Shown in pieces: positions 1,125 through 32,000 of a DNA stretch of 32,000 bases. This DNA comes from Halanaerobium saccharolyticum subsp. saccharolyticum DSM 6643 (lineage in GTDB: Bacteria; Bacillota; Halanaerobiia; Halanaerobiales; Halanaerobiaceae). Within the stretch, counting starts at the first letter, position 1, and the number at the start of each line of letters is the position of its first letter. A program made the position numbers and the translations under genes. The stretch covers positions 221,313-253,312 of the forward strand of contig NZ_CAUI01000015.1 of NCBI RefSeq assembly GCF_000350165.1, in the 5' to 3' direction. The notes beneath the pieces were generated by a model that was given only the letters and a program-made list of their open reading frames with translations, was not told where the DNA came from and ran no database searches.

Positions 1125-2699
1125 TTAAATTATTCTGATTCCTTCTTTTATTAAAAGTAAATACTCAATACTATCTACTAAAGCATCCCAGGAGGCCTGA
1201 ATAATATTTGTAGAAACTCCAACAGTTGTCCATGATTTTTCCAGATCTGCTGTCTCAATTAAAACTCTTACTTTAGCAGCAGTACCATCATTTCCATTTA
1301 AAACCCTTACCTTATAATCAATTAGCTTGCTTTCCGTGATTTCCGGATAAAATGAAACTAAAGCTTTACGGAAACAATTATCAAGGGCATTTACAGGACC
1401 ATCACCTTCAGCAGCTATATGAACTTTTTGCTTTTTAACTGTCATTTTAAGAACTGCTTCTGAATAGGTATGATTATCCTTATTTATACTATTGGTTCTA
1501 AAATCTTCAATTTCAAAAAACGAATTATAATCTTTAAATTCTCTAAAAGCCATCAAAATTAAAGAAGCCTCTGCCCCCTCAAACTGATAACCCTGATTCT
1601 CTAATTTTTTAACTTTTTTAATCAGTTTTTTAATCACTTCATCAGAAAAATCATTTAAATCAAAACCAACTTCTTTTAATTTATATAATAAATTAGATTT
1701 TCCTGCCAGTTCTGAAACTAAAACCCGCCGCTCATTACCCACTAATTCGGGCTCAATATGTTCATAAGTATGCGGATTTTTGCGAACTGCACTAACATGG
1801 ATTCCACCTTTATGAGTAAATGCACTTTTACCGACATAAGGTTTATTGTTTCTAGGAATTAAATTAGCAGTCTCAGTCACAAAATAATAGAGAGGTTTTA
1901 ACTGTTTTAACTGTTGATCAGTAACCAACTTTTCTCCATATTTAAGCTGTAAAGTTGGAATTAAACTGCATAAATCAACATTACCACAGCGCTCACCTAA
2001 ACCCCCTACTGTACCCTGAAACTGAACAGCACCTTCTTCATAAGCGACTATTGAATTGGCAACAGCTAGCTCACCATCATTATGAGCATGCATTCCAATA
2101 TCCATGTCAATTTTGCTTTTAACATCTTTGATAATTGTTCTGACCTGAGAGGGAAGTATACCACCATTAGTATCACATAAAACTAATAAATCAGCCCCAG
2201 CCTCAGCTGCTGTTTCTAAAACCTTTAAAGCATATTCTGGATTACTTAAATAGCCGTCGAAAAAATGCTCGGCATCAAAGAAAACATTTAAACCATTTTC
2301 TTTTAAAAATGAAATTGTATCTTCTATCATCTTAAGGTTTTCCTGCAGTGGAACCTGCAGTGCCTCTTTTACATGCAGATCCCAACCTTTTGCAAAAATA
2401 GCTACATAATCTACTCCTGCCTCAAGCAGTTTTAAAATATTTGTGTCTTCTTCAACCTTCATATTAGGATGCCTTGCTGAACTAAAAGCAACTATTTTTG
2501 CATTTTCTAAATTCATATTCTGTACTTCTTCGAAATATGCCTCATCCTTAGGATTAGAACCTGGCCAGCCACCTTCGATAAAATCAATTCCAAAACGATC
2601 TAGCTGTCTGGTTATTCTTAACTTATCATCTAAAGAAAGAGCAATTCCTTCTCCTTGTGAACCATCTCTTAAAGTTGTATCATAAAGTGTTAATCCCAT
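1125..2699 (-). CDS. cimA: (R)-citramalate synthase (LeuA-related, about 524-aa class)
   Basis: N-terminus MGLTLYDTTLRDGSQGEGIALS, HxH metal site (MHAHND) and a C-terminal LeuA-dimer-like domain. The DTTLRDGSQ form at this length is typical of the CimA clade rather than LeuA. A bona fide leuA is also present in the same operon. Confidence 0.75.
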   Translation of the reverse strand: MGLTLYDTTLRDGSQGEGIALSLDDKLRITRQLDRFGIDFIEGGWPGSNPKDEAYFEEVQNMNLENAKIVAFSSARHPNMKVEEDTNILKLLEAGVDYVAIFAKGWDLHVKEALQVPLQENLKMIEDTISFLKENGLNVFFDAEHFFDGYLSNPEYALKVLETAAEAGADLLVLCDTNGGILPSQVRTIIKDVKSKIDMDIGMHAHNDGELAVANSIVAYEEGAVQFQGTVGGLGERCGNVDLCSLIPTLQLKYGEKLVTDQQLKQLKPLYYFVTETANLIPRNNKPYVGKSAFTHKGGIHVSAVRKNPHTYEHIEPELVGNERRVLVSELAGKSNLLYKLKEVGFDLNDFSDEVIKKLIKKVKKLENQGYQFEGAEASLILMAFREFKDYNSFFEIEDFRTNSINKDNHTYSEAVLKMTVKKQKVHIAAEGDGPVNALDNCFRKALVSFYPEITESKLIDYKVRVLNGNDGTAAKVRVLIETADLEKSWTTVGVSTNIIQASWDALVDSIEYLLLIKEGIRII

Positions 2700-14172: not shown

Positions 14173-14246
14173 AATATATTAAGAATAACATTTTTTATAT
14201 TATTTTGTTATTACCCAAAAGTGTAATTTTTAGGAGGAGTAAACAC

Positions 14247-15046: not shown

Positions 15047-15541
15047 TTATTTTTTAAATTTAATATACTGATCTGTATCATTTGCAGATGTTGATGAGAA
15101 ATTATTTAAAATAATTTCTCGTGGAACATCACCAATATTTATTATAAGAGAATCTGGACTATTATTTTCAGTATTGAGCTCAAATGAGACTGTTTGGGTT
15201 TTAGTAAACTCAATAACTGTTCTATCAGTGCCACTATTATCTCTATATTTAAATTCTGCCCCATCAAAACCAATTATTGCTTCTCCTGAGTCTAAAGCTT
15301 CATTATAATCAGACACTAGTTCAATCCTGGTTGAATTTCTAATATTCTCTGCAATATAACTTGTTAAAAACCTGATTTCTCTTTGGGTAGCAGATTTTTC
15401 TTCAGTAAAATAGAAATTTCTGATCCCAGAACTAAAACTACTAAAAACTGCTGTTAATATTATTCCCCCTAAGGCAATAATAATTATAATTTCAACAAGC
15501 GAAAATCCATCTTTATCATTTATTTTTTTTAATAAAATCAA
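15047..15541 (-). CDS. Type IV prepilin-like protein (minor pilin, module 3)
   Basis: Class III signal peptide MILLKKINDKDG|FSLVEIIIIIALGGIIL with Glu5. TTG start. Confidence 0.8.
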   Translation of the reverse strand: MILLKKINDKDGFSLVEIIIIIALGGIILTAVFSSFSSGIRNFYFTEEKSATQREIRFLTSYIAENIRNSTRIELVSDYNEALDSGEAIIGFDGAEFKYRDNSGTDRTVIEFTKTQTVSFELNTENNSPDSLIINIGDVPREIILNNFSSTSANDTDQYIKFKK

Positions 15542-15571
15542 TTATATCACATCCTAAATTACTAAATTTTA

Positions 15572-15931
15572 TTAAGGAGAGATGGGATAAGCATAATAAT
15601 TAATTTCTAAAGTCCCTTCACCTATACCTGTAAATGAATAATTTTTAGTTATTGAATACTCATTTAGAACTATTGAAGCTAATTCTGTGTTGTTTACATC
15701 ATTTTCTATGAATTTAATAGTAATTGGTGTGGTTGATGTTCCTGCACCCCTGAGATCATTAATCAGACTTGCTCTGGCCTCATTTATTGCATTAGTTTTA
15801 TCCGTAAAACTAAAAACTGTTCTTACCCCTTGATAAAACAGAGGAAAAATAGCAGCAGCTATAATCCCAATAATGAGTATTGATATAATAACCTCAATCA
15901 AAGTAAATCCTTTTTCAAACAATATAATCAC
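15572..15931 (-). CDS. Type IV prepilin-like protein (minor pilin, module 3)
   Basis: ...FEKG|FTLIEVIISILIIGIIAAAIF with Glu5. The track ORF starts at 15982 inside the upstream gene. GTG at 15931 or TTG at 15922, just after the upstream stop and an AAGAGGGGTGA RBS, gives a normal short leader. The exact start is uncertain. Confidence 0.72.
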   Translation of the reverse strand: MIILFEKGFTLIEVIISILIIGIIAAAIFPLFYQGVRTVFSFTDKTNAINEARASLINDLRGAGTSTTPITIKFIENDVNNTELASIVLNEYSITKNYSFTGIGEGTLEINYYAYPISP

Positions 15932-15941
15932 CCCTCTTATT

Positions 15942-17087
15942 TTACTCCCATTTTCCTCTTGCATAAATAGAAAAATTATCATTTGGAGAATCTATTGGGC
16001 TATACTTTATTTCAGTACCTCCATTTTCTAGTTTTAATGTATTTGAAATTATTGCACCCTCTGATAATCCCTGTGTTTCAAATTGAATATCTAAATTTGG
16101 AGCATAAATATATCCATAAAATGCGGATGATGTTTCTATTTTATATTCTATTTCATCTTTATCTATAGGGAGTTCACTCGATAATGCTTCTGCATTATTT
16201 TTTTCCATTATATAAAATTTACTTGGGTCATAAGATGAATTTTCAAGTTCCGGACTAATAATCGCATTTTCTTCTGATTTAAAATAATTAGTATGAATAA
16301 TTAATCTTCCAGTACCAGTGCTGTTAATCTTTATTTCAGAATCATTACCTAATTTAACTTCGTTTTCAACATAAACATGAATATCTTCATTTTCAACTGA
16401 AAACTCTAATGTTTCATTTTGAATGTCAATATTTTTAACTGCTATAATACCATCAGAATTCAAGTCAGAAGAAGTATAAATTTTATTTGTATCAAATACA
16501 ATAGCATCATTATAATTTATTGGTTCATCAGGAAAACCAAATTCGTCAACATCAGGCAAAGTTTTTTCAACTTCATAAGCAATATTTCCATCAACATCAG
16601 CCTCTTCTATTATGAGATCTTCATTAGTACCTCCAGTACCTACATCTCCAATAATTGATCCAAATGTTTCTAGTTTACCACCAATTTTCATATATACAGC
16701 CAAATCAAAGATACTGATTTTATCTATATTAAGAATAACCTTTTCTGAAACTGAATTTACTTCTGATGTAGAGTTAATTTTGAAACCAGACGTTGAAGAT
16801 TCCACTTTAATATTTGAAACTTTATCATTATTTTTAACTATATTAAAATCAACTTCACCAAGAGTAAGATCACCTTTTTCTAGCATAGCCTCAGCTGTTA
16901 AATCTGCTCCCGCTCTAGCTAGATAATAAGCTTTAATCTGGTTCTTATCCCTTTCAGCTTGTTTATATTCAGCCAAAGTTATTCTTAAAATGACTGAGCC
17001 AAAAACTAAAAGAACAGCTAAAACCACAAAAGTTGTAACCAAAAAATATCCGTTTTCTCCAATTGATTTAAATGGTTTTTTTAACAT
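15942..17087 (-). CDS. PilX-N/GspK-like large pseudopilin (no Glu5), module 3
   Basis: MLKKPFKSIGENG|YFLVTTFVVLAVLLVFG, then the KAYYLARAGADL motif shared with the 333-aa and 389-aa paralogues. C-terminal FYGYIYAPNLDIQF...GAIISNTLKL..GGTEIKY resembles the PilX/TadG-type motif. RBS AGGAGGG. Confidence 0.65.
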   Translation of the reverse strand: MLKKPFKSIGENGYFLVTTFVVLAVLLVFGSVILRITLAEYKQAERDKNQIKAYYLARAGADLTAEAMLEKGDLTLGEVDFNIVKNNDKVSNIKVESSTSGFKINSTSEVNSVSEKVILNIDKISIFDLAVYMKIGGKLETFGSIIGDVGTGGTNEDLIIEEADVDGNIAYEVEKTLPDVDEFGFPDEPINYNDAIVFDTNKIYTSSDLNSDGIIAVKNIDIQNETLEFSVENEDIHVYVENEVKLGNDSEIKINSTGTGRLIIHTNYFKSEENAIISPELENSSYDPSKFYIMEKNNAEALSSELPIDKDEIEYKIETSSAFYGYIYAPNLDIQFETQGLSEGAIISNTLKLENGGTEIKYSPIDSPNDNFSIYARGKWE

Positions 17088-17118
17088 AAGTCAGCCCTCC
17101 TGACTAGAAATGAGATTA

Positions 17119-17166
17119 ATAAACAAAAAAGTAAATATAAATCAATAAAGACCTATATTTACTTTT
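17119..17166 (-). terminator. AT-rich intrinsic terminator (T2) between accessory pilin modules 2 and 3
   Basis: Minus strand AAAAGTAAATATA-ggtctttattgatt-TATATTTACTTTT followed by TTGTTTATT. Sequence-related to the terminator after pilQ (19527-19585). Confidence 0.5.
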
Positions 17167-17294
17167 AAAGACATAAGAGTTATAACTATCAGGAACCCAC
17201 CAATATTTAGTTTTTTATTATTTACTTTCTAATCTAATTATATCAGATTATACTAAGGAAATATATAGAATTTAATATATTATTACAATTTATT

Positions 17295-17741
17295 TTATGG
17301 AGTCATATTTCTAGGAACAATCTTTGTATTAACTGTTTCAAATTTGCTGCATTCATCATCCCTGCAAACTTCAATTATTATTTCATAAACTTCATCCAAT
17401 TTAACAATATTAAAACCTTTTATATTTGGAATACGTTTTTTTAATGTTTCATCACTGTTATTAATTAAAATTTCTTTATTTTCATATTTTACAATAGTTT
17501 TCCCATTTAAAATAATTTTATCATCATCTTCATCAATTTTAGAAGCATTTCTGGCATATTTAGAAATTTCAGTTAGTCTAATTTCTGCAATTTGTTTTGT
17601 ATTCATTCTTTTAGTGCTAGGTCGAACAATATTAAATAAATCAACTAAAAAACCTGTTGATACAGCAACTACAATTCCTACAATTGCAAGGGCTAACATT
17701 AGTTCTACTAATGTAAATCCCTTTTCTTTTTTTATATCCAT
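17295..17741 (-). CDS. Type IV prepilin-like protein (minor pilin, module 2)
   Basis: MDIKKEKG|FTLVELMLALAIVGIVVAV with Glu5. The start abuts the upstream stop. Confidence 0.8.
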   Translation of the reverse strand: MDIKKEKGFTLVELMLALAIVGIVVAVSTGFLVDLFNIVRPSTKRMNTKQIAEIRLTEISKYARNASKIDEDDDKIILNGKTIVKYENKEILINNSDETLKKRIPNIKGFNIVKLDEVYEIIIEVCRDDECSKFETVNTKIVPRNMTP

Positions 17742-18182
17742 TTATTCATCACCTGCCAAAAGCACTTCAGTAGTATAAGTTCTATCATCCCATGTTATTT
17801 TAATTTTAAATAAAAACAAATTAGAAGCAGGAATTTCATCTTCTGGATCACGTTCAATAATAATATTCTTGTTAGAGTCATCATTAAGACCAATAGAATA
17901 GTTTTGATTTTCATCGTTAATAATATTTTCAATATCATTAATAAGATTAGAATCTATATCTTCCCAATTTTCTTCATTTTTCCAATTATCTTTATTAGCT
18001 CTTAAACTTTCAATAATAGAATCTGTAACTCTAATCCCTTCTAGTCGTTGATTTACTCTTGATTCAACTCTGAATGAATTAATAATACCTCCAGAAAAAG
18101 CGATAACCAGAATCAATATTATTCCTAAAGAAATTACAATTTCTAATAAAGTAAAACCTTCTTCTTGTTTTATTAGTTCCAT
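17742..18182 (-). CDS. Type IV prepilin-like protein (minor pilin, module 2)
   Basis: MELIKQEEG|FTLLEIVISLGIILILV with Glu5. ATG at 18182 has a GAGGGA RBS 7 nt upstream. The track start at 18215 would overlap the upstream gene and give an atypically long leader. Confidence 0.78.
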   Translation of the reverse strand: MELIKQEEGFTLLEIVISLGIILILVIAFSGGIINSFRVESRVNQRLEGIRVTDSIIESLRANKDNWKNEENWEDIDSNLINDIENIINDENQNYSIGLNDDSNKNIIIERDPEDEIPASNLFLFKIKITWDDRTYTTEVLLAGDE

Positions 18183-18199
18183 AATGTAATCCCTCATCT

Positions 18200-19201
18200 C
18201 TATAATTGACTCCAATTTTTAATTTTTGGTTCAGGAGAATAAACAAAATCATTAGGTAAATCATCTGAATTTACATAAAACCCACCAGTTCCTCTGAAAT
18301 CAAGATAATAATCATGCTTGTTTGAGTTTTCAGAGTATATAAAAACTAAAGTATTATCCCAATCATCAGATCTTGAAGCTCCATTATGTGATAAATTATC
18401 TTTAATAAAAATAACTGAATTATCAATTTCTAATTTTGTATTAATATCGAATTCACCTTCTACAACAATAATAGAATTTTTAATAACTTCTGGGGCTTTT
18501 TTATTGCCACCACCAGACTTCATTATTAAATTACCATTTCTAATTAAAATATTTTGAGAATCAATAGTATTATTTTCATCCATAGTATCACTCAAATTAA
18601 AATCATTATTCTCAAAAACATGATTAAAACCACTATTATCAAAATCATCCTCATTAAAAAATTTTTGATCTAAAAACATTTTTGCTAAACTCAAAAAAGT
18701 TTCACTTGGCCATTCATTAAAACTTATATGATCTTCTAAATTTCCTCCTGCATCTTTATAGTGTTCTTCTTCCTCTTTATTATCTTCTTTTTTTATATTA
18801 AAATTTTTCAAGTTACCAAGTAAACCAAAACTAATATCAAATTTAATTTTCTGAATATATTCTCTATCGGAATTTAAATCATATATACCTTTAGAAGTAA
18901 CTTCATAATCATCTCCATCATCTTTAATATCTATTTCAAATTTAATATCTTTTGAGCCTAAATCTAAGTCCTCACTATCAATTTCTTTAATTCCATCGGA
19001 AACTATATCATCTATATTTGCCCTTACAAATTCCACTCCAGAATCAGCATTATAAAAAGCTTTAGACATACCCTCTTCGTGAACAGCTATATTTATATGA
19101 TTCCTTGCAGTTGTAGCTAATGCTGTAACTAATACAGTTCCCACTAATAATAGCAAAAGCACTAAAACTAAAGCTGCACCATCTTCATTTTTTTTAAACA
19201 T
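18200..19201 (-). CDS. PilX-N/GspK-like large pseudopilin (no Glu5), module 2
   Basis: MFKKNEDG|AALVLVLLLLLVGTVLVTALA, then KAFYNADSGVEF (PilX_N-like). RBS AAGGAGG. Confidence 0.62.
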   Translation of the reverse strand: MFKKNEDGAALVLVLLLLLVGTVLVTALATTARNHINIAVHEEGMSKAFYNADSGVEFVRANIDDIVSDGIKEIDSEDLDLGSKDIKFEIDIKDDGDDYEVTSKGIYDLNSDREYIQKIKFDISFGLLGNLKNFNIKKEDNKEEEEHYKDAGGNLEDHISFNEWPSETFLSLAKMFLDQKFFNEDDFDNSGFNHVFENNDFNLSDTMDENNTIDSQNILIRNGNLIMKSGGGNKKAPEVIKNSIIVVEGEFDINTKLEIDNSVIFIKDNLSHNGASRSDDWDNTLVFIYSENSNKHDYYLDFRGTGGFYVNSDDLPNDFVYSPEPKIKNWSQL

Positions 19202-19315: not shown

Positions 19316-19435
19316 TAAACAAAATAATCCACAGCAAATTCACTGTGGCATAAACCTGAGGCAAACTTGACAATCATAGATAAATTCCGTAGATTCAAGT
19401 CTTTGCGTAATAATTTTTCAATTATCTTGCCGTTA
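19316..19435 (-). promoter_or_regulatory. GEMM-I (c-di-GMP-I)-like riboswitch aptamer plus intrinsic terminator, copy A
   Basis: Minus-strand RNA: GGCAAG-AUAAUU-GAAA-AAUUAU-U-ACGCAAAG-ACUUGA-AUCUACGGAAUUUAUCUAUGAUUG-UCAAGU-UUGCC. This gives a GNRA-capped P1a, the conserved GCAA and ACGCAAAG strands, a P1b with receptor-like CUAcGG...CUAUG, and P1 closure. It is followed by CCUCAGGU, then CCACAG-ugaauuug-CUGUGG AUUAUUUUGUUU. Recognised by eye; no covariance model was run. Confidence 0.62.
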
Positions 19436-19460
19436 AAATATTTTATTAGTTGTTTTATTA

Positions 19461-19489
19461 ATTGTATACTTAATTTTTTATTTTTACAA
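19461..19489 (-). promoter_or_regulatory. Internal sigma-A-type promoter driving riboswitch copy A and the accessory pilin modules
   Basis: Minus strand TTGTAA-17 nt-TACAAT, about 25 nt upstream of the aptamer and downstream of the pilQ terminator. Confidence 0.5.
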
Positions 19490-19526: not shown

Positions 19527-19585
19527 GAAAAAATAAATAAAAAAAGTAAACATGAATCTCTCTTAAAGACCCATATTTACTTTTT
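19527..19585 (-). terminator. Intrinsic terminator (T1) after pilQ
   Basis: Minus strand AAAAAGTAAATATG-ggtctttaagagagattc-CATGTTTACTTTTT (14 bp with one G-U) followed by TTATTTATTTTTT. Confidence 0.55.
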
Positions 19586-29896: not shown

Positions 29897-31570
29897 TTAG
29901 TGAATAACACTTACCAGTTCATTATAGCTGGTAATCCCCTGACGAAGTTTTTCCTTACCATCCTCAAGTAATCCTTTCATACCATTTTCTCTAGCATAAC
30001 GCTTAAGTTCAGGTTCGTTGACTCCTTCTGTAATCATTTCTTCTAACTTAGTATCTATCTCTAAAATTTCGTGAATAGCAATTCTACCTTTATAACCATC
30101 AGTACAGCTTTCGCATTTTTCTTGAGAAGGGCGGTAAAGCTGATCCACATTATTATTTAAAAACTGTTTAACCTCTGGGCCAGGTTGATAACCTTCTTTA
30201 CAGTTAGGACAGAGTCTTCTAACAAGACGCTGGGCAATCACCCCAATAACTGTTGAAGCCACTAAATAGCCCGGAATTCCCATATCCATCAATCTAGTTA
30301 CAGCACTAACTGCATCATTTGTGTGCAAAGTACTTAAAACCAGGTGGCCTGTTAAAGCAGCTCTAATTGCAATTTCTGCAGTTTCTTCATCTCTGATCTC
30401 ACCAACCATTACTATATCCGGATCCTGTCTTAAAATAGATCTTAGGGTATTAGCAAAGGTTAGGCCAACTTTTTTATTAGCATGGACCTGATTCAGACCA
30501 TTTAACTGATATTCCACCGGATCCTCAATTGTTACAATATTTTTGGTCGGTGAATTAATTTCATTTAAAGCCGCAAATAAGGTTGTAGATTTACCACTAC
30601 CTGTTGGTCCGGTAGCTAATAAAATTCCATAAGGTTTTTTAATCAATCTATTAAACCTTTCCTTATTTTCTGCACTAAAACCTAACTTTTCTATATTTAA
30701 GAGGCTGTCATCCCTGTTTAAAAGTCTGATAACCACCTTTTCTCCATAAATTGTAGGTAGAGTCGAGACCCGCATATCTATCTGCATTCCCTTAAAGTTC
30801 ATCTGAATTCTTCCATCTTGAGGAATTCTGCGTTTAGTAATATCTAAGTCAGCAATAATTTTTAAACGAGAAATTAAAGCAGCCTGCGAATGTTTGGGAA
30901 TTGTAAGTTCCTCATGCAGGACTCCATCAACTCTGTAACGGACTCTAACACTACCTCTAAGCGGCTCAATGTGAATATCACTTGCCTTCGTGTGAATAGC
31001 CTGAGTTATAATCAAGTTGGTTAAGCGAACAATTGGTGCATCTTCTACCATCTGTCTTAACTGATCAAGCTCTGGCTCTTCATTCATTCCATATTGATCA
31101 AGACTATCAAAGATATCAGATGTATCAGTATCGATTAATGAATAAACCTGGTTAATTGCATTTATAATCTCCGAATGAGTTGCAATTGCTACTTCTATTT
31201 TCATACCGGAATTAACCTCTATATTTTCAATTGCTACTAAATCTGTTGGATCTTCCATTGCTACTTTTAAAAGATCATCTTCTATTTCATAAGGGACTGC
31301 ATTATGACGTCTAGCTAAATTTTCAGAAACATATTGAGAAAGGTGAGCATTTAATAAATAATTATTCAAATTAACCCTTGGAATACCCAGCTGATATTCT
31401 AAAACATCTATCAATTCTTCCTCAGATACATAACCTAATTTCTCTAATACTTCACCCAATCTCTGATCCATATCTTCCTGCTCAGATATTGCAGCTTCTA
31501 ACTCATTTTGAGTTATATAACCAAACTCAATTAGTAAATCACCAATTTTCTTTTTACTTTTAGCTCCCAT
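29897..31570 (-). CDS. pilB: Type IV pilus assembly ATPase with an MshEN-type N-terminal domain
   Basis: 557 aa. It has a T2SSE_N domain, Walker A GPTGSGKSTT, Walker B IVMVGEIRD, STLHTN and the tetracysteine motif CPNC...CESC. RBS GAGGAG. Confidence 0.93.
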   Translation of the reverse strand: MGAKSKKKIGDLLIEFGYITQNELEAAISEQEDMDQRLGEVLEKLGYVSEEELIDVLEYQLGIPRVNLNNYLLNAHLSQYVSENLARRHNAVPYEIEDDLLKVAMEDPTDLVAIENIEVNSGMKIEVAIATHSEIINAINQVYSLIDTDTSDIFDSLDQYGMNEEPELDQLRQMVEDAPIVRLTNLIITQAIHTKASDIHIEPLRGSVRVRYRVDGVLHEELTIPKHSQAALISRLKIIADLDITKRRIPQDGRIQMNFKGMQIDMRVSTLPTIYGEKVVIRLLNRDDSLLNIEKLGFSAENKERFNRLIKKPYGILLATGPTGSGKSTTLFAALNEINSPTKNIVTIEDPVEYQLNGLNQVHANKKVGLTFANTLRSILRQDPDIVMVGEIRDEETAEIAIRAALTGHLVLSTLHTNDAVSAVTRLMDMGIPGYLVASTVIGVIAQRLVRRLCPNCKEGYQPGPEVKQFLNNNVDQLYRPSQEKCESCTDGYKGRIAIHEILEIDTKLEEMITEGVNEPELKRYARENGMKGLLEDGKEKLRQGITSYNELVSVIH

Positions 31571-31737: not shown

Positions 31738-31856
31738 GCAAAAAATTGCCATTAAAAAGTTCACTATGGCAATTTTTACCTGAGGTAAACATAACTATCA
31801 TAGGAAATCCCTTAGACTTATGTTTTTGCGTCACAGCCTTTAAACTGCTTTGCTAT
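31738..31856 (-). promoter_or_regulatory. GEMM-I (c-di-GMP-I)-like riboswitch aptamer plus intrinsic terminator, copy B, in the pilB leader
   Basis: Minus-strand RNA: AGCAAAGCAG-UUUAAAGG-CUGUG-ACGCAAAA-ACAUAA-GUCUAAGGGAUUUCCUAUGAUAG-UUAUGU-UUACC. It is followed by CCUCAGGU, then AUUGCCAU-13 nt-AUGGCAAU UUUUUUU. Colinear with copy A (shared GCAA, ACGCAAA, UCUA.GG, CUAUGAU, CCUCAGGU, terminator). Confidence 0.58.
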
Positions 31857-32000
31857 TATATATTTAACTTAAAGTATCCTCATTCTAATTTAATTATAAA
31901 ATTATTAATTTAAAAAGTATATTACCCAAAAGAGTAATTCTTACTTAATTATTTATTCTTCCTCTGCTTCAAGTTCTTTTTGTTCTATAATCTCCACTGC

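Follow-up and report, generated by a model that had tools for sequence, protein, structure and literature searches.

A second c-di-GMP-I riboswitch in the type IV pilus locus of Halanaerobium saccharolyticum and the exchangeable minor-pilin cassette that it probably gates

The DNA studied here is a stretch of 32,000 nucleotides (nt) from Halanaerobium saccharolyticum subsp. saccharolyticum DSM 6643 (contig NZ_CAUI01000015.1, positions 221,313 to 253,312), referred to as the window, and it carries a type IV pilus (T4P) locus. On the minus strand of the window lie pilB, pilT, pilC, a major pilin gene, pilD, two minor pilin genes, a gene for a 389-amino-acid (aa) PilX_N-like protein, pilM, pilN, pilO, a gene for a 164-aa protein, and pilQ; the presence of the secretin gene pilQ is explained by the host being a diderm Firmicute. 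PilQ as read from the window had no exact match among recorded proteins, but it is 100% identical to the DSM 6643 secretin, which is annotated as a shorter protein. Downstream of pilQ are three genes for proteins of 333, 157, and 148 aa, then a 206-nt gap, and then genes for a 381-aa DUF7305 protein and proteins of 136 and 164 aa. Two leaders within this locus contain elements of the cyclic di-GMP-I (c-di-GMP-I) riboswitch family: one, RS1, lies upstream of pilB, and the other, RS2, which is the subject of this report, lies between pilQ and the 333-aa gene. The parts of these leaders are as follows.

31781 to 31864, minus strand: RS1, the aptamer of the pilB leader; RF01051 match of 55.0 bits, with A at position 20 (31854)
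19541 to 19585, minus strand: intrinsic terminator of the pilB-pilQ operon, a hairpin of about 20 bp followed by a U-run, found by a terminator scan and present in all orthologous leaders
19461 to 19489, minus strand: sigma-70-type promoter read from the sequence, TTGTAA-17 nt-TACAAT, with a predicted transcription start site near 19454
19357 to 19441, minus strand: RS2, a c-di-GMP-I (GEMM-I) aptamer of 85 nt matching RF01051; G20 equivalent at 19431, receptor variant C at 19389
19354 to 19361, minus strand: tail and linker CCUCAGGU, invariant in 14 of 14 distinct copies, its CC including the C92 equivalent
19317 to 19348, minus strand: expression platform, an intrinsic terminator with the hairpin CCACAGUG-AAUU-UGCUGUGG at 19348 to 19329 followed by AUUAUUUUGUUU

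The whole window was compared with all 4227 Rfam families by cmscan, and exactly two matches passed the gathering thresholds; each is a full-length match to RF01051 on the minus strand. RS2, at 19357 to 19441, scored 53.1 bits (gathering score, 35; E=7.7e-08) and covered model positions 1 to 87 of 87. Direct reading agreed with this match: the RS2 aptamer consists of P1a (GAUAAUU-GAAA-AAUUAUU), GGCAAG, ACGCAAAG, and P1b (AGAC/UGAAUC...GAU/UCA/GUUU), which bears out the second GEMM-I-like aptamer with a GAAA-capped P1a, GGCAAG, and P1b that had been proposed in an initial annotation of this DNA. The nucleotides equivalent to Vc2 G20, A47, and C92, to which ligand contacts have been assigned (PMC6140456), are found in RS2 as the G at 19431, the A in ACGCAAAG, and the CC in UUUGCC. 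When 11 distinct aptamers were aligned on the Rfam fold, 95% of cells were paired over 22 pairs and five pairs had changed in a compensatory manner; with partners slid out of register, at most 53% of cells were paired, and none of 500 shuffles reached the observed covariation score. A covariance model built for the subfamily gave at least 89 bits for 13 copies (101.8 bits for RS2) and at most 16.5 bits for everything else in the 469 kb searched. RS2 therefore agrees with RF01051 in its score and overall architecture, in the covariation of its pairs, in the contact nucleotides, and in its place within a leader. RS1 and RS2 do not form a tandem riboswitch: they are 12.3 kb apart, with 13 genes and the pilQ terminator between them, and each has its own promoter and terminator. 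The initial annotation had considered RS2 the cleaner match of the two, which is correct in one respect, as its position 20 (19431) is the consensus G. However, RS2 scored slightly below RS1, and its tetraloop receptor deviates, with CUACGG in place of CUAAGG (C at 19389). Taken together, these sequence comparisons confirm RS2 as a real member of the c-di-GMP-I riboswitch class, for which a response to ligand is predicted; it adds no new class of regulator.

The remaining parts of the RS2 leader were found where the initial annotation had placed them. The promoter consists of a -35 hexamer TTGTAA (19489 to 19484) and a -10 hexamer TACAAT (19466 to 19461). In DNA as AT-rich as this, promoter-like hexamer pairs are no more frequent than chance predicts (89 in the window versus 101±11 expected in shuffled sequence), so the promoter call rests on conservation: the -35/17-nt/-10 layout was retained in all nine distinct copies of the RS2 type and of RS3, a third copy described below. 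The CCACAG/CUGUGG hairpin has an 8-bp stem with four G-C pairs (-11.1 kcal/mol) and is followed by the U-run AUUAUUUUGUUU, as expected of an intrinsic terminator; 115 nt separate this U-tract from the AAGGAGG and ATG of the 333-aa open reading frame. Both CCUCAGGU and GCCAYAGUGA are identical in the RS1 and RS2 leaders, in line with the earlier statement that the two aptamers are colinear and share a conserved linker. The strong, conserved hairpin at the end of pilQ supports the view that the RS2 unit is insulated from the pilB-pilQ operon.

We assembled a comparative set from the loci around PilQ homologues in 26 Halanaerobiales genomes, together with contigs encoding the closest PilQ proteins; individual loci are given L numbers below. 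RF01051 matches were located directly 3' of pilQ in L002, L033, L039, L040, and L041, and a metagenome scan with a pattern specific to the subfamily added L043, L045, and L046; a pattern by which its members can be recognized is GTTTRCCTCAGGT...CCAYAGTGA. The RS2 leader elements were kept in seven distinct orthologous post-pilQ leaders of related Halanaerobium, in the shared order pilQ terminator, -35/17 nt/-10, aptamer, GUUURCCUCAGGU, RCCACAGUGA...CUGUGG, and U-tract. No aptamer was found after pilQ in Halanaerobium species whose PilQ was 50 to 59% identical (kushneri, congolense, salsuginis, polyolivorans, and others). Orthologues of RS1 were present upstream of pilB in L042 and in L047 to L051; the latter five are extra pilB-upstream regions, all of which gave RF01051 matches of 48 to 60 bits with the same CCUCAGG tail, and they represent three non-redundant lineages (L048 equals L049 and L050 equals L051) that include H. 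congolense and extend down to 79% PilB identity. Since RS1 is present in all five of the extra pilB-upstream regions and RS2 is absent at 50 to 59% PilQ identity, RS1 is the older, ancestral copy and RS2 a lineage-restricted duplicate. The two types differ in P1 and in the register of the terminator stem. In RS1-type leaders, a UGAGG located 17 to 24 nt upstream of the aptamer (31882 to 31878 in the window) pairs with CCUCA in the alifold consensus to form P1, whereas RS2-type leaders lack this 5' strand; the terminator stem is UUGCCA/UGGCAA in the RS1 type (about 31777 to 31740 for RS1) and CCACAG/CUGUGG in the RS2 type. The duplication would thus have lost the 5' strand of P1 and retained the CCUCAGGU tail and the GCCAYAGUGA core of the platform.

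The genes downstream of RS2 and the hairpin that divides them are listed here.

18200 to 19201, minus strand: first cargo gene, for a 333-aa protein whose N-terminus includes a hydrophobic segment and is weakly GspK-like
17742 to 18215, minus strand: second cargo gene, 157-aa minor pilin, overlapping the preceding gene by 16 nt
17295 to 17741, minus strand: third cargo gene, 148-aa minor pilin, abutting the preceding gene
17125 to 17166, minus strand: hairpin nearly identical to the pilQ terminator and followed by a U-run, in the 206-nt gap after the third gene
15047 to 17087, minus strand: module B, a separable unit of the 381-aa DUF7305 protein followed by minor pilins of 136 and 164 aa

These six genes had been described as pilin-like, which is correct for four of them: PF07963, the prepilin N-methylation motif (G|FTLxE plus a hydrophobic helix), was matched at or above its cut-off by the 157-, 148-, 136-, and 164-aa proteins, whereas the 333- and 381-aa proteins are PilX_N-like or DUF7305 proteins. 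The 333-aa protein, homologues of which are found behind the riboswitch in L002 and L046, gave 19.6 bits with PilX_N (PF14341), below the Pfam gathering score of 25.5. Its pairwise BLASTP comparison with the 389-aa PilX-like protein of the core cluster gave E=0.17, too weak a match to establish it as a clear paralogue of that protein. The 157-aa pilin scored 21.9 bits with PF07963 (cut-off, 21.2) and 15.9 bits with TIGR02532, just under the cut-off of 16.3, and had weak ComGE- and PilV-like matches; the 148-aa pilin scored 36.3 and 29.8 bits, respectively. Only the 148- and 136-aa proteins exceeded the TIGR02532 cut-off, and the 164-aa protein had no match to this model.

Two features of the 206-nt gap have counterparts elsewhere. 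The core of the pilQ terminator, AAGTAAATATRGGTCTTTA, occurs twice in the window (the second copy at 17146 to 17164) versus 0.1 times expected, and its loop is conserved; the conserved loop suggests that the hairpins at 17125 to 17166 and 19541 to 19585 have a role beyond that of a plain terminator, for example as a repeated element or a protein-binding site. A block of about 50 nt, AAATTGTA..ATATAT..TGATATAATTAGWTTAGAAA, which contains the extended -10-like TGATATAAT, follows the third gene at 17237 to 17262 (minus strand), and in L045 the same block directly follows the terminator of the riboswitch. Either a junction left by recombination or a secondary promoter could account for it. No aptamer remnant was detected in the gap (17088 to 17294) or in the corresponding slots of other species, the best non-member scoring 16.5 bits, and a degenerate third aptamer in either place was rejected.

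The slot occupied by these genes has a conserved backbone, with pilQ on one side and a convergent luxR-type gene, a 192-aa gene, ilvE, and ilvD on the other. It is empty in several species, contains homologues of the 333/157/148 module (module A) without a riboswitch in others, contains module B alone in L008, and contains the riboswitch with cargo in the relatives of the window. The cargo itself varies. In L033, the post-pilQ riboswitch fronts a different cassette, of two pilins and a 387-aa PilX_N-like protein. L040 and L041 have identical PilQ, promoter, aptamer, and terminator and are unrelated from about 18 nt past the U-tract: in one of them, remnants of the 333/148 type follow, and in the other, a cassette of the pilin-pilin-PilX type. 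This divergence after an identical riboswitch provides direct evidence that cargo has been exchanged behind a fixed riboswitch. RS2 would accordingly act as a fixed regulatory socket between pilQ and the convergent luxR-type gene, behind which PilX-like/minor-pilin cassettes are swapped between strains; in the window, this cassette would consist of three translationally coupled genes.

Several other observations concern this slot and related cassettes. The A'-type cassettes (L033, L039, L041/L043, and L045) share a conserved leader with TATATAATAGCAATTCAGCAG just before the cargo and a small hairpin, CUCGAAUUUWUACGAG, that abuts the Shine-Dalgarno (SD) sequence (GUGAGGAGG); this leader may be a second promoter or a translational element downstream of the riboswitch terminator. 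In L044, the same riboswitch and platform (2288 to 2375, minus strand) precede genes at 534 to 2306 and 98 to 532 for a 590-aa DUF7305 protein with a CBM5/12 domain and for a pilin, and a tyrosine-recombinase-like (integrase) gene adjoins them, so that this unit may represent an adhesin module of the pilus that is both mobile and under riboswitch control. A group II intron (RF02001 plus RF01998) lies between pilQ and the module A homologues of H. polyolivorans (L006:12020-12328), and an ISL3 transposase gene follows pilQ in L034. The post-pilQ slot attracts mobile DNA.

The region from 19317 to 19489 on the minus strand is probably a complete, functional-looking transcriptional c-di-GMP-I unit, duplicated from the pilB leader, that gates a swappable three-gene cassette. 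A hairpin and U-tract were found 7 to 20 nt past the aptamer tail in 14 of 14 distinct copies, with stabilities of -8.5 to -15.8 kcal/mol, which makes transcription attenuation the likely output. Depending on whether the second messenger is bound to the aptamer, RNA polymerase would either terminate near 19320, at the CCACAG/CUGUGG hairpin with its U-tract, or enter the cassette. The aptamer shares no nucleotides with the terminator, and the two are folded side by side in both the minimum free energy (MFE) folds of single sequences and the alifold consensus fold. Landgraf et al. found that the two folds coexist in the OFF switch Cd1 and are mutually exclusive in the ON switch of pilM (PMC9262584), and the class I switches of C. 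difficile are uniformly OFF (PMC6200980). On the strength of these parallels we favor OFF polarity for RS2, giving it somewhat better than an even chance, with ON polarity the lesser prospect and ligand insensitivity a small one; as an OFF switch, RS2 would lower the expression of the cassette in response to c-di-GMP. A number of points weigh against the unit as we read it. Four candidates were examined without yielding a conserved, energetically credible antiterminator in the RS2-type copies, and either polarity is therefore left without a demonstrated switching helix. A purely thermodynamic model forms the terminator with or without ligand, the RS2-type copies have no identifiable P1, and the tetraloop receptor of the window RS2 deviates (CUACGG). 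The Bc1 GEMM-I leader of B. thuringiensis can be locked OFF whatever the ligand (PMC11218506). The c-di-GMP-binding MshEN domain of PilB, described below, and the upregulation of C. difficile T4P by c-di-GMP (PMC6366702) both fit an ON switch better, and transcription from RS2 could read through into module B.

The extent of the gated unit was judged from gene spacing and synteny. All six genes from 15047 to 19201 had been placed under RS2, and we consider such a single accessory pilin operon unlikely. The six genes are co-oriented, module A is followed by module B in L046 as well, and only about 35 nt separate the hairpin at 17166 to 17125 from the start of the 381-aa gene, so that transcription of module B must start upstream of the hairpin, possibly at the RS2 promoter. 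However, that hairpin is strong and terminator-like, with a U-run, and stands between the third and fourth genes; the gap also contains the extended -10-like TGATATAAT at 17245 to 17237; and module B occurs alone in L008 and apart in L033 (PilQ identity, 87%), where the DUF7305 three-gene module, preceded by an RF01051 copy of its own (RS3, the third, L033:16171-16254), lies beyond the luxR-type gene and a 190-aa gene. Because the first three genes overlap or abut, a terminator copy follows them, and module B is separate in L033, RS2 most likely gates the 333-aa PilX-like protein and two minor pilins, at 17295 to 19201, and the hairpin at 17125 to 17166 is the probable end of the RS2-controlled unit or else an attenuator before module B. 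The proposal that the core machine and an accessory set are under separate sensor copies stands insofar as RS2 is paralogous to RS1, has a promoter and terminator of its own, and precedes pilin-like genes. It might be argued that RS2 is a duplication relic without function, comparable to the class I duplicates that are inactive in C. difficile 630, since functionless duplicated GEMM-I copies are documented (PMC6200980), P1 is missing from the RS2-type copies, and the receptor is substituted in the window. We regard this as very improbable: the ligand-contact and junction nucleotides are all intact in RS2, the nine distinct RS2/RS3-type copies keep the aptamer, promoter spacing, and terminator while their flanks and cargo diverge, and compensatory changes have occurred within the type, such as the C-G pair at P1a in L044.

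Whether RS2 and RS1 read one signal, and with what sign, depends on a single contact nucleotide and on the helices after the tail. The position equivalent to Vc2 G20 (model position 11) is A in 12 of the 14 distinct copies, namely RS1 (31854) and 11 others, and G only in the window RS2 (19431) and its closest relative, L045; these two copies also share CUACGG for CUAAGG in the tetraloop receptor (window 19389). Vc2 G20 contacts one guanine of c-di-GMP, and a G20A change makes the RNA accept both c-di-GMP and 3',3'-cyclic GMP-AMP (3',3'-cGAMP), as do natural A20 variants, including one from Clostridium beijerinckii (PMC6140456). The A expected of GEMM-Ib (3',3'-cGAMP) aptamers is present in RS1 and replaced by G in RS2, and the claim that both leaders contain the same second-messenger sensor was not upheld at this key contact. 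The A20 copies could, on this evidence, respond to 3',3'-cGAMP or to both ligands, with the window G20 reverted to c-di-GMP only and RS1 and RS2 reading different signals. This we think possible but doubtful, given that A20 alone does not confer selectivity for cGAMP, that A20 RNAs still bind c-di-GMP (PMC6140456), that no cGAMP synthase came to light, although no search was aimed at one, and that the MshEN domain of PilB points to c-di-GMP signaling in this system. A stronger contender concerns polarity. Were RS2 an ON switch, ligand would prevent termination, and c-di-GMP would induce the cassette and, via RS1, the entire pilus machine, as happens with C. difficile pilA1 and Geobacter pilM. 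The first RCC in the 5' half of the terminator would then be taken up by the invariant GGU that directly follows the aptamer tail. The resulting helix would stack on the ligand-ordered junction (or on P1 in RS1) and deprive the terminator of the two G-C pairs that it needs. With the 3' half of the terminator blocked, GGU(AA) x (UU)RCC is the sole conserved partner of the 5' half, and none of the 14 copies departs from the GG or the CC. In the RS2-type copies, moreover, nothing competes strongly with the terminator when ligand is absent (best duplex, -3 to -7 kcal/mol), so that the default state looks terminated, and both the MshEN domain and the published positive control of T4P by c-di-GMP (PMC6366702) agree with induction. 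Conversely, the GGU x RCC helix has only 3 to 5 bp and -0.2 to -2.3 kcal/mol, versus -8.5 to -15.8 kcal/mol for the terminators, and aptamer and terminator are not mutually exclusive, unlike those of the published ON example (PMC9262584). An ON switch is a serious prospect that we rate below OFF, and the GGU x RCC helix could be used for either polarity. The base at position 20 and the swapping of cargo behind the switch are side findings of note that we consider moderately interesting.

Other switching helices were considered and set aside. An anti-SD model, in which the tail UUUGCCUC exactly complements GAGGCAAA at the SD of the 333-aa gene, with a similar match for RS1, was rejected as unconserved, the SD of L046 being AAGGAGAU and L042 and L050 showing no covariation. 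Pairing of the 5' pocket strand (R)GCAA with UUGC of the terminator loop and 3' half, which is present in the MFE fold of the window RS2 itself, was rejected as a mechanism common to all copies: L039, RS3, and L044 do not preserve it, and the strand has another partner in RS1. Pairing of the 3' strand of P1a plus ACGCAA with UUGCCAYAGU reached -9 to -11 kcal/mol in two RS1 copies and was unsupported, with Y changing to A without compensation and the motif replaced in L050. Finally, the pairing of the A-rich 5' leader with the U-tract that appears in most MFE folds was discounted, as it would form too late to influence termination and any AU-rich RNA would be expected to show it.

Two further features of the pilus locus lie outside the RS2 leader. 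PilB (29897 to 31570, minus strand) has an MshEN domain at residues 8 to 61 (68.4 bits) with a recognizable tandem 24-residue c-di-GMP-binding motif, KIGDLLIEFGYITQNELEAAISEQ-EDMDQ-RLGEVLEKLGYVSEEELIDVLEYQ, resembling that described in PMC5013675; a single messenger may therefore act on the pilus machine at both the RNA and protein levels. Conservation along the cluster is mosaic: between H. congolense and the window, PilB is 95% identical, PilQ only about 56%, and PilM about 31% (pilB-pilC versus pilM-pilQ; L048 and L010), which suggests recombination within the cluster. In addition, a 54-nt direct repeat with 72% identity and the hairpin TTACCCAAAAGNGTAA was found at 31890 to 31943, upstream of RS1 where the preceding gene ends, and at 14179 to 14232, between the luxR-type and 192-aa genes.

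Several known systems resemble the RS2 unit in part. Cd1 (Cdi-1-3), in front of the flgB operon of C. difficile, belongs to the same Rfam family, is likewise transcriptional and from a Firmicute, and has an aptamer followed by a coexisting terminator (PMC9262584, PMC6200980). It differs in having a long platform, with a 61-nt binding window, and a defined antiterminator that unfolds the binding pocket, whereas in Halanaerobium the terminator begins 7 to 20 nt past the aptamer tail and the search for an antiterminator gave no convincing candidate; moreover, the target of Cd1 is flagella and that of RS2 is pili. The GEMM-Ib riboswitch of Geobacter metallireducens pilM is an aptamer of the GEMM-I fold before a polycistronic T4P assembly unit (PMC9262584, PMC6140456), and its A at position 20 is shared with RS1 and most copies here, the window RS2 having G20. 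Unlike RS2, however, it is an ON switch from a deltaproteobacterium with mutually exclusive terminator and aptamer, has cGAMP as its ligand, and governs core assembly genes, whereas RS2 precedes an accessory minor-pilin cassette. Cdi-2-4, before C. difficile pilA1, is another second-messenger riboswitch that controls T4P transcription in a Firmicute via a terminator (PMC6366702), but its aptamer is of the c-di-GMP-II class, it is a single switch before the major pilin gene, and it is proven to be ON. Alternative sets of minor pilins and PilY1 are known from Myxococcus xanthus clusters (PMC7541494), and Synechocystis has pilA5-6 versus pilA9-11 (bioRxiv 10.1101/2020.12.15.422378). There, as would be the case in Halanaerobium, more than one minor-pilin set with a large tip-associated protein is available per T4P machine and the sets are differentially expressed; none of those sets is known to be riboswitch controlled, and the large Halanaerobium proteins are candidate tip proteins. 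The arrangement had been put forward as not known to be described. That holds for a riboswitch before an accessory minor-pilin cassette, which was not found in the literature searched, and does not hold for pilus genes in general, for which GEMM-I before Geobacter pilM (PMC9262584) and c-di-GMP-II before C. difficile pilA1 (PMC6366702) have been published. The literature search found no paper on c-di-GMP riboswitches in Halanaerobium.

A more far-reaching interpretation, which we regard as speculative and rather unlikely as a whole, is that the slot after pilQ is a docking site fronted by the riboswitch, in which the promoter, aptamer, and terminator stay fixed while alternative pilus-tip modules are recombined behind them between strains. 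Each module would comprise a large PilX or DUF7305 protein, some of them adhesin-like or carbohydrate-binding, and two minor pilins; further sockets, RS3 in L033 and the one in L044, would front added modules; the G20/A20 toggle would set the specificities or thresholds of RS1 versus RS2; and the second messenger would thereby pick the tip.

The RS1/RS2 pair presents a well-supported case in which paralogous GEMM-I riboswitches would split one T4P locus into separately sensed units: the core machine is one, and PilX-like/minor-pilin modules make up one or two accessory units, with the riboswitch as the conserved part and the cargo as the exchanged part. Orthologues that are nearly identical yet differ in having G or A at position 20 amount to a natural experiment in c-di-GMP versus cGAMP specificity. 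For Halanaerobium, a dominant biofilm former in saline subsurface systems, these results suggest that structures for surface attachment are under second-messenger control.

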